Below, piece after piece: positions 1 to 62,365 of a stretch of DNA of 64,000 nt. Position numbers and translations under genes: made by a program. The notes under the pieces were generated by a model. That model saw only the letters and a list, made by a program, of their open reading frames with translations, was not told the DNA's origin and searched no databases. Within the stretch, counting starts at the first letter, position 1. Each line of letters starts with the position of its first letter. Source of the DNA: a phage; the sequence record PZ445134.1; one strand, written 5' to 3'.

Positions 1-2317
<2,317 letters not shown>

Positions 2318-16973: not shown

Positions 16974-18488
16974 ATGACAGATATTAAAGTACATTTTCAT
17001 GATTTTAGCCATGTAAGAATTGAATGCGACGAAAGCGTGTTCTATGAATTACGCGACTTTTTTAGCTTTGAAGCCGATGGGTACAAATTCAACCCGCGTT
17101 ACAAATATGGGAACTGGGATGGTAGAATTCGACTTTTAGATTATAACCGTTTGTTACCATACGGACTTGTAGGACAAATAAAAAAGTTCTGTAACAATAT
17201 GAGTTATTCTGTATGGATTGACCCTAAAATCTTTGAGACAGAAGATCTTACCAGGGAAGATTTTGACGCATGGCTTTCTAAACAAGAAATTTATTCTGGC
17301 AACGCCAAAATCGAACCACATTGGTATCAAAAAGATGCAGTATACGAAGGACTAGTTAATCGTCGTCGAATTTTAAACCTTCCGACATCAGCAGGTAAAT
17401 CACTAATCCAAGCACTTTTAGCTCGTTATTATCTAGAGAACTATGAAGGTAAAATTCTCATTATCGTCCCTACAACAGCATTGACAACCCAGATGGCTAA
17501 TGATTTTGTTGATTATCGCTTGTTTAATCATTCGATGATTAAGAAAATTGGCGGCGGTGCTGATAAAGCAGACAAATCTAAAAACGACGCTCCAATTATT
17601 GTTGGCACATGGCAAACAGTAGTTAAGCAGCCTAAAGAATGGTTCTCTCAGTTCGGTATGATGATGAATGATGAATGCCACTTAGCAACAGGCAAAAGTA
17701 TTTCTTCAATCATCTCAGGATTAAATAATTGCATGTTTAAATTCGGTTTATCTGGCTCATTAAGAGACGGAAAAGCCAATGTAATGCAGTACGTAGGTAT
17801 GTTCGGCGAAATCTTCCGTCCTGTTAGCACGTCTAAATTAATGGAAGACGGGCAGGTAACTGAGCTTAAGATTAATAGTATTTTCCTTCGTTATCCGGAC
17901 GAATTCACTGTTAAATTAAAAGGTAAAACATACCAAGAAGAAGTTAAAATTATTACCGGACTAAAACGACGTACAAAGTGGATTGCTCAACTTTCAGTCA
18001 AATTGGCTAAGAAAGACGAGAACGCCTTTGTAATGTTTAAACACGTTACACACGGTAAAGAAATATTTGAAGCTATTAAAGAGCTTGGATACGAAAAAGT
18101 TTATTACGTATCAGGTGAAGTTGATACTGAAACACGTAACGCGCTTAAAGTTATGGCAGAAAATGGTAAAGGCATTATTATTGTCGCATCATATGGAGTA
18201 TTCTCTACTGGTATTTCAGTCAAGAATCTTCATCATGTTATTTTCGCCCATGGTGTTAAATCAAAAATTATCGTACTTCAAACCGTAGGTCGCGTGCTTC
18301 GTAAGCATGGTTCTAAAGCTGTTGCTACAGTTTGGGATCTCATCGATGACGCAGGTGTAAAACCTAAATCATTAAATACTAAAAAGAAGTATACTCATCT
18401 TAATTACTTGTTAAAACACGGTATTGATCGTATCCAACGTTACGCTGATGAGAAATTTAACTATGTAATGAAAACAATTAATTTATAA
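16974..18488 (+). CDS. uvsW: UvsW DNA/RNA helicase (SF2)
   Basis: 504 aa; helicase motifs PTSAGKS (Walker A) and DECH; T4 UvsW position. Confidence 0.9.
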   Translation: MTDIKVHFHDFSHVRIECDESVFYELRDFFSFEADGYKFNPRYKYGNWDGRIRLLDYNRLLPYGLVGQIKKFCNNMSYSVWIDPKIFETEDLTREDFDAWLSKQEIYSGNAKIEPHWYQKDAVYEGLVNRRRILNLPTSAGKSLIQALLARYYLENYEGKILIIVPTTALTTQMANDFVDYRLFNHSMIKKIGGGADKADKSKNDAPIIVGTWQTVVKQPKEWFSQFGMMMNDECHLATGKSISSIISGLNNCMFKFGLSGSLRDGKANVMQYVGMFGEIFRPVSTSKLMEDGQVTELKINSIFLRYPDEFTVKLKGKTYQEEVKIITGLKRRTKWIAQLSVKLAKKDENAFVMFKHVTHGKEIFEAIKELGYEKVYYVSGEVDTETRNALKVMAENGKGIIIVASYGVFSTGISVKNLHHVIFAHGVKSKIIVLQTVGRVLRKHGSKAVATVWDLIDDAGVKPKSLNTKKKYTHLNYLLKHGIDRIQRYADEKFNYVMKTINL

Positions 18489-19720: not shown

Positions 19721-20119
19721 TTACACTCTATTGCTTGACGCTAACTGAAGTTTAATTTGTTCAATATCATCAGGGTTGTCTACGACCGAAAATCTAATCT
19801 CTACTATAACCGTATAGTCATCATATACTGGCGTTACACTTACAGAAAGTTTGTCGATGCGTGGCTCATAGTTACGAACAGCTGCCTGGATATTACGCTC
19901 AATCGTATCGGCTGTAAGTGGTGTCATGTTCTCGAAAAGTTCGTCGACCAAATCGCATCCAAATTCAGGGTCGAAGGGGCGTGAGCCTTTTCTAGTTGTC
20001 ACTATGCCAAGAAGACTATTTTTAATAGAACGAAGTCCTACAGAACGAGCAACATCCTTGTTCCAATCCATACGCATTTCTGGGTCGATATCTGAATAAA
20101 GTTTATTGATATTAGACAT
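19721..20119 (-). CDS. 25: baseplate wedge protein
   Basis: 132 aa, T4 gp25-like. Confidence 0.9.
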   Translation of the reverse strand: MSNINKLYSDIDPEMRMDWNKDVARSVGLRSIKNSLLGIVTTRKGSRPFDPEFGCDLVDELFENMTPLTADTIERNIQAAVRNYEPRIDKLSVSVTPVYDDYTVIVEIRFSVVDNPDDIEQIKLQLASSNRV

Positions 20120-20745
20120 TATAGTAACTCAAAGAATTCTTTGAGGCCTCGTATTGTGTGAACGTGTGACGCCCCACATTTGGGACATTTAATAGGGGTT
20201 GCCAAATAAATTGATGGCGATACTAAAAGATTTTTAATATTGATCATGTCATCTTCTGTTATAAGGCCGTAAAGGTCGTTTATTTCTGCTTCAGTTAAAT
20301 CTTCAACAGGGATGGACTCTCCGTTGACAAAAACGGCCTCAATACATGAAGCAATCATTAATGCGATATTTTTATCGTCAAATAATTTAGGTTGACGGAA
20401 CTTAATTTTAATACCGCTGAACGAATACCAGGGATCGGCCTGTTCATCTAATTGAGTGTGCAATAAATTCATATAGACTTGAAATGAATGCCCACAGGAA
20501 CAATTCCAGGTGTGTTCTTGATTCACTTCACCTAATGAATGTGCCCACAGATTTACCAACAATAGCTCGGCTTCTTGTTTAGTCAAGTTTTTAGCATTAG
20601 AGCAATTAGTGATAATATTGTTCACTGCTGATTCAATAGTACCGGTAGCCCGCGCACCAATGAGTCCTAAATATTCTTTTAAAGTAAAGGCTCTACAATT
20701 CACTTCTTTATCGCCTAAACGTACGGTAAACGTATATTTGTACAT
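20119..20745 (-). CDS. 26: baseplate hub subunit
   Basis: 208 aa, T4 gp26 position; UAAUG stop/start overlap with gene 25. Confidence 0.85.
   Translation of the reverse strand: MYKYTFTVRLGDKEVNCRAFTLKEYLGLIGARATGTIESAVNNIITNCSNAKNLTKQEAELLLVNLWAHSLGEVNQEHTWNCSCGHSFQVYMNLLHTQLDEQADPWYSFSGIKIKFRQPKLFDDKNIALMIASCIEAVFVNGESIPVEDLTEAEINDLYGLITEDDMINIKNLLVSPSIYLATPIKCPKCGASHVHTIRGLKEFFELL
20128..20150 (-). promoter_or_regulatory. gene 25 translation initiation region: Shine-Dalgarno GAGG separated from the AUG by an 18-nt palindromic hairpin
   Basis: ctcaaagaattctttgag is a perfect palindrome lying between cctc (SD on the - strand) and the ATG at 20119. Confidence 0.45.
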
Positions 20746-33290: not shown

Positions 33291-33306
33291 GGAGGCCGAA
33301 GCCTCC
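33291..33306 (-). terminator. UUCG-tetraloop hairpin
   Basis: ggaggccgaagcctcc reads GGAGGC-UUCG-GCCUCC on the - strand, followed by U-tract. Confidence 0.45.
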
Positions 33307-40919: not shown

Positions 40920-42053
<1,134 letters not shown>

Positions 42054-42068: not shown

Positions 42069-42101
42069 TAAATTGTACCACAATCCTTGTGGTATGTAAA
42101 C
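42069..42101 (-). promoter_or_regulatory. sigma70-type early promoter for rnlA
   Basis: - strand GTTTAC, 17-nt spacer, GTACAAT. Confidence 0.4.
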
Positions 42102-42511
42102 TACTTTTTCTTATGTTGGATATTCCAAGGCGGGTTGAACTTTTTGATAAAAAGTGGTTCTTCAAGGTCCATTGTTGCGATGGCCATTGAACCAAGTTCG
42201 TTAGTGACTGAAAGGTCAAAACATTGGCGGGCCCAGAATTCAACCTTTTTGCCTTGCATTAAGGCATCCAAAATCATAAGTGATTTTCTTGAATCTGAAG
42301 TCTGGTCTTTTCGATTTATGGCTGTTCGATAATAGTTAATGCGTTTCTTTAAATTCTTGGTTTTACCAATATACACAAGTTCGTCATCTATAGCAATAGC
42401 GTATATGACATTTTTCTTATTAGGGGCATCAATGGTTTTAATTGTTGCATCTTCTAATAGCTCCAATTCTATATATTTAATAAAGGAATATTCGGCGGCA
42501 ATATCTTTCAT
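42101..42511 (-). CDS. denA: endonuclease II (GIY-YIG family)
   Basis: 136 aa; VIYAIAIDDELVYIGKT motif; T4 DenA size, position and C-terminus NPPWNIQHKKK. Confidence 0.88.
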   Translation of the reverse strand: MKDIAAEYSFIKYIELELLEDATIKTIDAPNKKNVIYAIAIDDELVYIGKTKNLKKRINYYRTAINRKDQTSDSRKSLMILDALMQGKKVEFWARQCFDLSVTNELGSMAIATMDLEEPLFIKKFNPPWNIQHKKK

Positions 42512-42540
42512 AATAAAGTGGGACCGAAGTCCCGTCCTTA
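42512..42540 (-). promoter_or_regulatory. denA translation initiation region with Shine-Dalgarno and AUG separated by a UUCG hairpin
   Basis: - strand UAAGGACGGGACUUCGGUCCCACUUUAUUAUG; AAGGA lies 23 nt from the AUG with the hairpin between. Confidence 0.45.
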
Positions 42541-43716
42541 GAAATATTTTTTGTATGAATTGATTACATTTTGGTCTACATCATTATCAATTTGTGCGAC
42601 AAGATAAGAACTGATTTCAACTTCCTGAGGAGCTGCTTGAACTAAATCAGAGTTCAGATATTCACGAATCCAAGGATATGGATGCTTGGTCGGAGCATCA
42701 GTGATTGGGCAGGGTAAACCACACTGTTTCATACGAGACACAGTCAAGTAATCAACAAAAGCACACATACTCTGCGTATTGATACCTGGACATGTACCGT
42801 CTTTAAAGAGGTGTGCAGCCCATTCCTTCTCTTGTCTATTTACTTCCATAAAAATGTCAACTGCTTCTTGTTCACATTCTTTAGCAATTTGAACCCACTC
42901 ATCACCATCAGTACCAGATTGAAGTTGACGGATAATGTACTGAGTACCCTTGAGGTGGAGTTGTTCGTCACGAGCAATGAACTTCATAATCTTTGCATTA
43001 CCTTCCATAATTTCCATATTTTTATGGAAGTTGAAAGTACATGCAAATGATACGTAAAAACGAATAGCTTCTAAGGCGTTGATAACATGCAAACAGAGAT
43101 AAAGAGACTTCATTAAATCACGCTTAGCAGCGGCTTCTTGCTTAATAGCACGTTCTAATTGAAGGTCTGCATTAATTGACGCTTTGGCTAGTTCCGTGAA
43201 TTCTTTCTGGTTTTCCCAATGGCGAGTCTTGACTAGAACATCATCGTAATATTTACCTATTGATTCAGCTCGTTTCATGATTGCTTCGTCTAATACAATC
43301 TCATCAAATACCTTAGATGGATCGGTATAAAGATTTCGCATAATATGAGTATACGAACGAGAGTGAATAGTTTCACTGAATGTCCATGTTGCAACCCACG
43401 TATCTAATGAAGGGTCAGAAATCAGTGCCATAAGTACCGCAGATGGGGCCCTGCCTTGGATAGAATCTAATAATGATTGATATTTAAGATTGTTTGTAAA
43501 GATGTCCTGTTGGAACTGAGGAAGCTTATTGAACTGCGCAGAGTCCAACATCAAGTTTACCTCTTCAGGACGCCAGAAAAACGACAATTGCTTTTCAATA
43601 AGTTCTTCGAAAACTTTATGACGCTGAATATCATACCGTGCGAGGCCAAGACCAGAACCAAAGAACATCGGTTCATTCAAAACATCGACTTGTTGCGTGT
43701 TAAAAACTGTACTCAT
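42538..43716 (-). CDS. nrdB: ribonucleotide reductase small subunit (class Ia), uninterrupted
   Basis: 392 aa continuous ORF with di-iron and tyrosyl radical-type motifs. Confidence 0.93.
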   Translation of the reverse strand: MSTVFNTQQVDVLNEPMFFGSGLGLARYDIQRHKVFEELIEKQLSFFWRPEEVNLMLDSAQFNKLPQFQQDIFTNNLKYQSLLDSIQGRAPSAVLMALISDPSLDTWVATWTFSETIHSRSYTHIMRNLYTDPSKVFDEIVLDEAIMKRAESIGKYYDDVLVKTRHWENQKEFTELAKASINADLQLERAIKQEAAAKRDLMKSLYLCLHVINALEAIRFYVSFACTFNFHKNMEIMEGNAKIMKFIARDEQLHLKGTQYIIRQLQSGTDGDEWVQIAKECEQEAVDIFMEVNRQEKEWAAHLFKDGTCPGINTQSMCAFVDYLTVSRMKQCGLPCPITDAPTKHPYPWIREYLNSDLVQAAPQEVEISSYLVAQIDNDVDQNVINSYKKYF

Positions 43717-61561: not shown

Positions 61562-61565
61562 TAGA

Positions 61566-61579
61566 GGGGCTTCGGCCCC
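61566..61579 (+). terminator. UUCG-tetraloop hairpin between genes 37 and 38, no U-tract; may be an RNA stability element
   Basis: ggggcttcggcccc immediately before the GGAGG Shine-Dalgarno of gene 38. Confidence 0.35.
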
Positions 61580-61591
61580 TTGGAGGTTTAT

Positions 61592-62365
61592 ATGGCAGTT
61601 GAAGGACCGTGGGTAGGATGGTCTGCAAGGGTACAGACTGGAGATCCTTGGATGGGTGGTGCCGCACAGAGATTAAGAATGGGCATTCCGTTCTGGATGA
61701 GTAATATGATAGGTCGATCTGTTGAAGTAATTCACACACTTGGAGCAGACCATAACTTCAATGGTCAATGGTTCCGAGATAGATGTTTTGAGGCAGGCAG
61801 TGCACCTATAGTGTTTAATATCACTGGAAATTTAGTATCATATAGTAAAGATGTTCCATTATTCTTTATGTATGGCGATACACCAAATGAATATGTTACT
61901 TTGAATATTCATGGTGGTGTTCATATGTGGGGCCGAGGTGGTAATGGTAGCGTAAATGGAAGCCCAGGCACAAATGGCGGCGATGTAATCCAAAATGATA
62001 TCGGCGGAAGACTTCGTATTTGGAACTACGGCGTTATTGCATCAGGTGGCGGTGGCGGTGGTGCAGTGTCGTTAAAGAATAGCTGGCCTGCAAATTCTAC
62101 AGCAGGTGGCGGTGGTGGTAGACCATTTGGCATCGGCGGTGGCGGCGTTAATTGGCCTGGTGGTAATGCTAGTTATGACGGTCCAGGTGGTGGTGGTGGT
62201 ACAAGTCAATATGGCGGTGGGCGTGGCGGTGATGCTGGAGGTTGGGGCGGAGATGGATGGGGTAAGAACTTGTCCAGATCTGGCGGTGGTGCTCCTGGCA
62301 GAGCAGTATTCGGAAGTTCACCGTCATGGGGTGCTACAGGCACAATCTACGGCTCCTGGATTTAA
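61592..62365 (+). CDS. 38: receptor-recognising adhesin, T2-type gp38 with glycine-rich motifs
   Basis: 257 aa from [10 protein letters not shown]; conserved N-terminal domain then several poly-Gly blocks flanking short variable segments. Confidence 0.88.
62040..62260 (+). repeat. glycine-codon repeats (GGTGGCGGTGG...) encoding the glycine-rich motifs of gp38
   Basis: repeated ggtggcggtggtgg blocks read directly in sequence. Confidence 0.8.

Follow-up and report, generated by a model that had tools for sequence, protein, structure and literature searches.

The window, by which we mean the entire 64,000-nucleotide stretch of phage DNA that was analyzed (sequence record PZ445134.1), comes from an RB69-like Mosigvirus of the T4 type and is 98% identical to RB69 over a test kilobase. 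On its minus strand, the gene for the small subunit of ribonucleotide reductase (nrdB) is followed by denA, which encodes endonuclease II, and then by rnlA (Table 1). The nrdB gene is annotated likewise in RB69 and its relatives. In T4, nrdB is split by a group I intron with a defective I-TevIII gene, and the nrdB gene of the window is uninterrupted. The record for phage CJ20 additionally lists a hypothetical protein (CJ20_098; record L009, positions 456-692, minus strand of the locus) that runs antisense across the nrdB-denA junction and is probably a spurious ORF call.

The ~800 nt of nrdB sequence that lead up to the denA start contain no match to a sigma-70-like promoter, a MotA box, or a late promoter, and a private promoter for denA was rejected on this ground. 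Because there is no promoter-like site near denA, expression of this gene depends on read-through from nrdB. A weak sigma-70-like match (9/12) is located early in nrdB at 43376-43340, and the closest element that looks convincingly like a promoter consists of a MotA-box-like TGCTT followed by TATAAT (GTTCTGCTTGTAAGC...GATTATAAT), which occupies 43786-43755 on the minus strand just upstream of nrdB. This element probably serves nrdB as its middle promoter, and transcripts begun there would include denA as well. Farther along the same strand, the 56-nt spacer between denA and rnlA carries a sigma-70-like site with an extended -10 element (TTTACA, 17 nt, TG-TACAAT; 42100-42072), which suggests that rnlA has a promoter of its own.

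Table 1. Genes and sequence elements at the nrdB-denA junction and at the gene 26-25 junction of the window
Feature	Coordinates	Strand	Description or basis
nrdB	42538-43716	-	ORF, 392 aa, no intron; Pfam Ribonuc_red_sm, E=9.5e-38
denA	42101-42511	-	ORF, 136 aa, endonuclease II; Pfam GIY-YIG; E=1.3e-65 to T4 EndoII (2WSH)
rnlA	40920-42044	-	Downstream of denA
nrdB stop codon UAA	42540-42538	-	Sequence
SD-like AAGGA	42539-42535	-	Overlaps the nrdB stop codon (UAAGGA = 42535-42540); sequence, 16S duplex
Hairpin GGGAC-UUCG-GUCCC	42520-42533	-	Arms 42533-42529 and 42524-42520; loop 42528-42525
Spacer ACUUUAUU	42512-42519	-	8 nt, U-rich, G-free; sequence
denA AUG	42509-42511	-	First start codon of the ORF
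Gene 26-25 junction, split RBS	20117-20150	-	GAGG 20150-20147; CUCAAAG-AAUU-CUUUGAG 20145-20128; UUACUAUA; AUG 20119-20117

In the denA ORF of the window, the AUG at 42511 is the first start codon, and none precedes it in frame. An N terminus that begins with M-K/Q/N aligns across most Tevenvirinae junctions, and the majority are of the M-K-(D/E)-I-A type encoded from the downstream AUG. Likewise, the T4 enzyme crystallized for PDB entry 2WSH was produced from a construct in which a His-tag is followed by MKEI. Two GenBank records place the start elsewhere, namely at a GUG in T4 (AF158101.6; record L001, positions 867-869) and at an AUG in JS98 (EF469154; record L006, positions 577-579). Both annotated starts coincide with the 5′-most base of the hairpin, leaving 0-1 nt between them and AAGGA, and yield products of 144-145 aa. 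We rejected this hairpin-base GUG or AUG as the denA start codon because it is absent or out of frame in other lineages. In the record for phage PEi26 (L011, positions 805-1011), denA is annotated as the C-terminal 68 codons only. The denA annotations of T4, JS98, and PEi26 look like artefacts. For annotation, this means that the T4 and JS98 records start denA at a nonconserved codon within the hairpin, and that other records label the hairpin as a terminator only.

Read 5′ to 3′ on the minus strand, the junction is AAAUAUUUC-UAA-GGA-C-GGGAC-UUCG-GUCCC-ACUUUAUU-AUG-AAA. The stop codon of nrdB and the start codon of denA do not overlap but are separated by a gap of 26 nt. A preliminary description of this DNA had pointed to AAGGA, overlapping the nrdB stop codon and ending 23 nt from the AUG, as the sole SD-like element upstream of denA, and had noted that the intervening sequence includes a perfect 14-nt hairpin. 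The sequence agrees with both statements. In the window, neither GGA nor GAG nor AGG occurs between the hairpin and the denA AUG, and the duplex formed by UAAGGA with the 3′ end of 16S rRNA (GAUCACCUCCUUA) is predicted to have a free energy of -8.7 kcal/mol. The 5-bp hairpin accounts for 14 of the 23 nt, and its UUCG loop is closed by a C-G pair, as in the extra-stable C(UUCG)G tetraloop. When folded alone, the hairpin has a predicted ΔG of -7.5 kcal/mol, and in three different sequence contexts it is >90% formed (P>0.9), with the denA AUG mostly unpaired in the predicted ensembles. A search of Rfam returned no family at gathering score, the only hit being a chance-level match to ARRPOF on the opposite strand (15 bits vs 127). 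It had also been proposed that folding shortens the distance from SD to AUG to a functional range, and the numbers fit this proposal: a folded hairpin would reduce the spacing from 23 to 9 nt, and the corresponding values in relatives are 5-14 nt. Thus, denA has a distant SD (beyond ~15 nt from the start codon), no SD within the canonical 4-13 nt, a stable stem-loop between SD and AUG, and a collapsed spacing that is predicted to be functional.

Hairpins of this kind are more frequent in the window than chance would predict. UUCG hairpins with stems of at least 5 bp and at least four G-C pairs occur eight times (six on the minus strand), and none appeared in the 30 first-order Markov simulations of the window that defined the chance expectation. 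The other UUCG hairpins that precede gene starts are all followed by a normal SD (GGAG at 18486, GGAGG at 61565, and GAGGA at 33306), and among the UUCG hairpins of the window that of denA alone separates an SD from a start codon. Both strands were scanned for the pattern of an SD, a hairpin, an SD-free spacer, and a start codon, in this order, and only three sites matched: denA, gene 25, and an ATG within nrdB, of which the first two are true gene starts. Two UUCG hairpins in the window share an identical 18-nt sequence, GGGAGAC-UUCG-GUCUCCC (49251-49234 and 33806-33789, both minus strand), are terminator-like, and are followed by UUUU. The same sequence recurs in an IMG/VR phage (L054, positions 575-592), where it forms the hairpin of the denA junction, a hint that these structures may be mobile as small cassettes.

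We then turned to the corresponding junctions of related phages, using annotated members of a dozen Tevenvirinae genera together with IMG/VR contigs, which represent 26 distinct junction sequences. The order of stop codon plus purine block, hairpin, spacer, and AUG is kept in all 26, spanning at least a dozen Tevenvirinae lineages. The purine blocks that overlap the stop codon are UAAGGA, UAAGGAG, UAAAGGA, UAAGAGAGG, and, in a single case with a UAG stop codon (L060), UAGGAG; UAAGG, AAGGA, or GGAG adjoins the stop codon in 24 of the 26 junctions. The C-G closing pair is present in every junction. The tetraloop is UUCG in 21, and the remainder carry GCAA or GUAA (both in the T4 group), UUAG (twice), or UUUG (once). 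The spacer that follows the stem is 5-10 nt long; in the 20 junctions that were measured, it spans 6-10 nt from the end of the Watson-Crick stem and is mostly U-rich, with 0-2 G residues. None of the 26 spacers shows a GGA, GAG, or AGG, although spacer sequence varies freely.

The stem itself varies in a manner that preserves pairing. Compensatory changes are found at five of seven stem pairs, with double changes in 27 cells across the 26 junctions. For example, pair 15-22 is GC in 18 junctions, CG in five, and AU in three; pair 12-25 is GC in 14 and AU in 10; and pair 11-26 is AU in 14, GC in three, UA in three, and CG in one. None of 500 shuffles reached the observed covariation score, registers shifted by 1-3 columns scored far lower, and RNAalifold recovered the same helix from the junction alignment. 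The layout of the junction is more than a chance arrangement.

Distances along the junction are also conserved. The linear distance between SD and AUG is 22-26 nt among the 20 junctions measured and 28 nt in L054. With the hairpin excluded, the spacing is 5-14 nt (mean of 8) in relatives and 9 nt in the window. L054 has a longer stem, of 7 bp, and a gap of 32 nt between stop codon and AUG, versus 26-28 nt elsewhere, and yet its collapsed spacing stays at 10 nt. Note that the linear gap between stop codon and AUG varies no more (26-28 nt) than does the collapsed spacing (5-14 nt), and this constancy could reflect descent with few indels rather than a geometry under selection. In Krischvirus, where denA does not follow nrdB, a terminator-like hairpin comes first and a conventional GAGGAAAGGAUA SD stands between it and the AUG of denA.

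Three additional features of the junction were considered and rejected as conserved. The minimum free energy structure extends the stem by pairing UAAGG with CUUUA, which would mask the SD, but across the 26 junctions this extension does not exceed shuffled flanks in stability (median rank of 0.49). In the predicted ensemble for the window, AAGGA (42535-42539) pairs with UUCCUUU in denA codons 8-10 (42481-42487) with a probability of ~0.85-0.9, but T4 has UUCAUUU at this site and the 81-nt region does not fold more stably than shuffles of it (z score of -0.73). This pairing is probably incidental, but it could damp initiation in the lineage of the window. Finally, a GGAG site for cleavage by RegB is present only in T4, KMB17, L042/L043, and L060 and is absent in the window.

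Taken together, the layout and its conservation make it reasonably likely, judging by sequence and predicted structure, that denA is translated from a split (hairpin-bridged, or 'accommodated') ribosome-binding site (RBS) of the type found at T4 genes 38 and 25. Because a purine block has been re-created beside the UAG stop codon of L060 and the spacer holds no SD, we take the upstream block to be the SD of denA. According to this model, denA would be transcribed together with nrdB, and its sole SD, UAAGGA, would be, at 23 nt, too distant from the AUG to function if the mRNA were linear. By folding quickly, the C(UUCG)G hairpin would remove 14 nt from the path, leaving ~9 unpaired nt plus the width of the helix end, such that a 30S subunit bound to UAAGGA would place the AUG in the P site. 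We infer that the folded hairpin is needed for, or enhances, initiation at denA. A ribosome terminating at the end of nrdB would have to melt the hairpin and would release its 30S subunit on the SD. Because the terminating ribosome would thereby both open the structure and free a subunit directly atop the SD, some hand-over from nrdB to denA is likely, and this coupling is likely to be a contributor to denA expression rather than an alternative explanation for the junction.

We weighed several other explanations against this model. The hairpin might serve mainly as a 3′-end element of nrdB, acting as a leaky terminator and/or as a barrier to 3′ exonucleases and so lowering the amount of denA mRNA relative to nrdB mRNA, in which case its position between SD and AUG would be incidental and denA would be poorly translated. 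We consider it unlikely that this is the main function. The G+C-rich stem and U-rich tail passed a loose terminator scan (5 T in 8), and the GenBank records for fPS-90 and JB75 annotate the nrdB-denA hairpin as a rho-independent terminator, as predicted computationally. However, on a d'Aubenton-Carafa-type score, the window junction scores -43, having a stem of only 5 bp with A and C straight after it, whereas the five stand-alone hairpins of the window that were scored (49251, 33807, 29577, 14374, and 12693) score positive. Junctions of T4 (+25), L049, L050, and others are positive on the same scale, for a total of 11 of the 26, and the other 15 are negative. Because only 11 of the 26 are terminator-positive, terminator strength is not the property that has been conserved.

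In favor of a 3′-end element, abundant NrdB and scarce nuclease would be a sensible ratio, and in unrelated phages the same cassette is found after genes for major head proteins, where attenuation is expected. However, with no promoter-like site close upstream of denA, read-through must be substantial. Moreover, a terminator would leave unexplained why the SD is always located upstream of the hairpin and never in the spacer, and why the collapsed spacing is preserved in L054 despite its longer stem. A 3′-element role is nevertheless compatible with a split RBS as a second function. We therefore favor the hairpin-bridged RBS as the primary role and consider it probable that the hairpin also marks the 3′ side of the abundant nrdB message as a barrier to 3′ exonucleases and that, in some lineages such as T4, it acts secondarily as a leaky terminator.

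A second possibility is that denA is translated mainly by termination-reinitiation, wherein ribosomes that finish nrdB restart 26 nt farther on, possibly while held by the SD, and the hairpin does not form a geometric bridge. The overlap of stop codon and SD in all 26 junctions is consistent with such a mechanism. The footprint of the ribosome is well established, and from its size one would expect a ribosome positioned at the UAA to open the hairpin, which starts 4 nt beyond the stop codon. However, a posttermination 30S or 70S particle that is not translating lacks the helicase drive of elongation, and it could not scan past a refolded C(UUCG)G hairpin except by looping it out, which is the bridge model itself. 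Nor is the SD or AUG masked in any conserved way that would make coupling obligatory, and the nearly identical site at T4 gene 38 has been described as a split SD (PMC3014915). We judge this mechanism improbable as the main route to denA translation.

Overlaps that would permit direct coupling are present in some relatives. In T4-like phages of Aeromonas, denA overlaps the upstream gene, and in the viable Yersinia phage fHe-Yen9-01 (KY593455; record L038, positions 560-606) the module is absent and is replaced by an AUGA overlap without an SD, in which the TGA of nrdB overlaps the ATG of denA (UUAUGA). Because this phage is viable, the module must be dispensable where direct coupling is available. 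Its relative vB_YenM_TG1 (L037) keeps a GGGAG-CUUGA-CUCCC hairpin. In fHe-Yen9-01, nrdB upstream of the join is most like nrdB of the Dhakavirus type (~81%) and denA downstream of it is like that of TG1/phiR1-RT (~91%), which suggests a recombination joint at the start of denA.

A third possibility, SD-independent initiation at a low level through an AU-rich leader and ribosomal protein S1, with AAGGA having no role for denA, draws on the A/U-rich spacer and first codons (ACUUUAUUAUGAAAGAUAUU) and on the mostly unpaired AUG of the predicted ensembles, but we regard it as highly improbable because the stop-adjacent purine block is noncoding for nrdB and yet is retained in junctions that have diverged deeply and is formed anew beside a UAG stop codon, and because ~60% of the 82 ORFs called crudely in the window, many of them with miscalled starts, are closely preceded by an SD (duplex of -4 kcal/mol or better).

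Arrangements of the same kind can be found beyond the nrdB-denA junction. A query of IMG/VR with TAAGG-N2-5-GGGCTTCGGCCC, which itself required the purine block, matched at least 120 stretches of sequence, and among the matches listed, 28 of 122 have the AUG of an ORF of at least 40 codons within 16 nt and no SD-like triplet in between. In unrelated phage contigs, a stop codon that overlaps AAGG is followed by a GGGGC-UUCG-GCCCC hairpin, a spacer of 7-14 nt, and an AUG; examples among the IMG/VR records L072-L191 include L087 (3556-3600), L081 (3519-3565), and L072 (5381-5420). Several of these cassettes are located after genes for major head proteins and before a tail protein gene (phrog_394). 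These matches show recurrence of the cassette rather than its frequency or its function.

One might go further and suppose that the cassette is a reusable device of phages, placed after highly expressed genes (nrdB, gene 37, and unrelated major head genes) to hand ribosomes over to the next gene, although we hold this broader idea to be doubtful. In such a device, the terminating ribosome would melt the hairpin, whereupon the SD overlapping the stop codon would hold its 30S subunit. Refolding of the hairpin would then deliver the AUG to the P site and cap the upstream message. If true, the downstream protein would be made at a fixed, low ratio to the upstream one.

In the accessible literature we found no description of a split RBS at denA, although mention in older papers is possible, and no published expression, toeprinting, structure-probing, or 3′-end mapping data for the nrdB-denA junction; usable Term-seq or Ribo-seq data for T4 did not come to light either. 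The preliminary description had named T4 genes 25 and 38 as precedents, and a 2010 review supports this choice (PMC3014915). According to that review, structure between SD and AUG cuts the spacing from 22 to 5 nt at gene 38 and from 27 to 11 nt at gene 25, destabilizing mutations reduce initiation (genes 38 and 25 taken together), and the gene 25 case was confirmed by lacZ fusions and DMS probing (citing Nivinskas 1999; Malys and Nivinskas 2009). These two genes are the only hairpin-bridged RBSs that it names.

The T4 gene 38 site bears the closest resemblance to that of denA. The junction between T4 genes 37 and 38 reads UAAGGAGAG-GGGC-UUCG-GCCC-UUCUAAAU-AUG-AAA, with a 26-nt gap between stop codon and AUG, and its layout is thus nearly the same as that of denA: a UAA that overlaps the SD (UAAGGAG), a short G+C stem with a UUCG loop, an 8-nt purine-poor spacer, and AUG-AAA. 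The denA junctions of KMB17 and L042 match the T4 gene 38 site at most positions. By analogy, this likeness is the strongest single argument that the denA module works alike. The two sites differ in the SD, which is AAGGAC at denA versus GGAG at T4 gene 38, and in the collapsed spacing of 9 versus 5 nt. The genes differ as well, since gene 38 is a late gene for tail-fiber assembly, whereas denA encodes a pre-replicative nuclease. The window has its own gene 38, for a T2-type adhesin (MAVEGPW...), which is preceded at 61565-61594 on the plus strand by an AGGGGC-UUCG-GCCCCU hairpin, then UGGAGGUUUAU, and then the AUG. Here the hairpin comes before the GGAGG SD, in contrast to T4 gene 38, where the SD comes before the hairpin; the same building blocks are used in opposite order.

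A hairpin-bridged site had also been reported for gene 25 of the window, and we could read its GAGG, hairpin (20128-20150 for the two together), UUACUAUA, and AUG at the place indicated (Table 1). Like denA, gene 25 has an SD more than 20 nt from the AUG, a hairpin between the two, and an 8-nt spacer. However, the gene 25 stem is 7 bp long and A/U-rich with an AAUU loop, whereas the denA stem carries the extra-stable tetraloop. Furthermore, the SD and hairpin of gene 25 lie inside the coding sequence of gene 26 and are codon-constrained, whereas the denA module is wholly noncoding, and covariation in its stem is for this reason the cleaner evidence. The range of the two sites differs also, in that the review confines the gene 25 arrangement to closely related T-even phages (PMC3014915), whereas the denA module is found in at least a dozen Tevenvirinae lineages and thus covers a wider range of T4-type genera than the review gives for gene 25. 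Its natural variants, which include stems of 4-7 bp, different tetraloops, a version with a UAG stop codon, and the viable phage with an AUGA overlap, offer a direct way to test how mRNA with a looped-out segment is arranged on the 30S subunit.

The denA hairpin can also be set beside other structures with the same loop. T4-type phages reportedly carry C(UUCG)G hairpins between cistrons, and the denA hairpin shares with these hairpins and intrinsic terminators the extra-stable tetraloop closed by a C-G pair. The other UUCG hairpins of the window either stand alone, with a UUUU tail and a positive score as terminators, or precede a conventional SD, whereas the denA hairpin does neither. On the pattern of its sequence and covariation, denA would instead join T4 genes 38 and 25 as the third, and a widely conserved, member of the class of hairpin-bridged RBSs.
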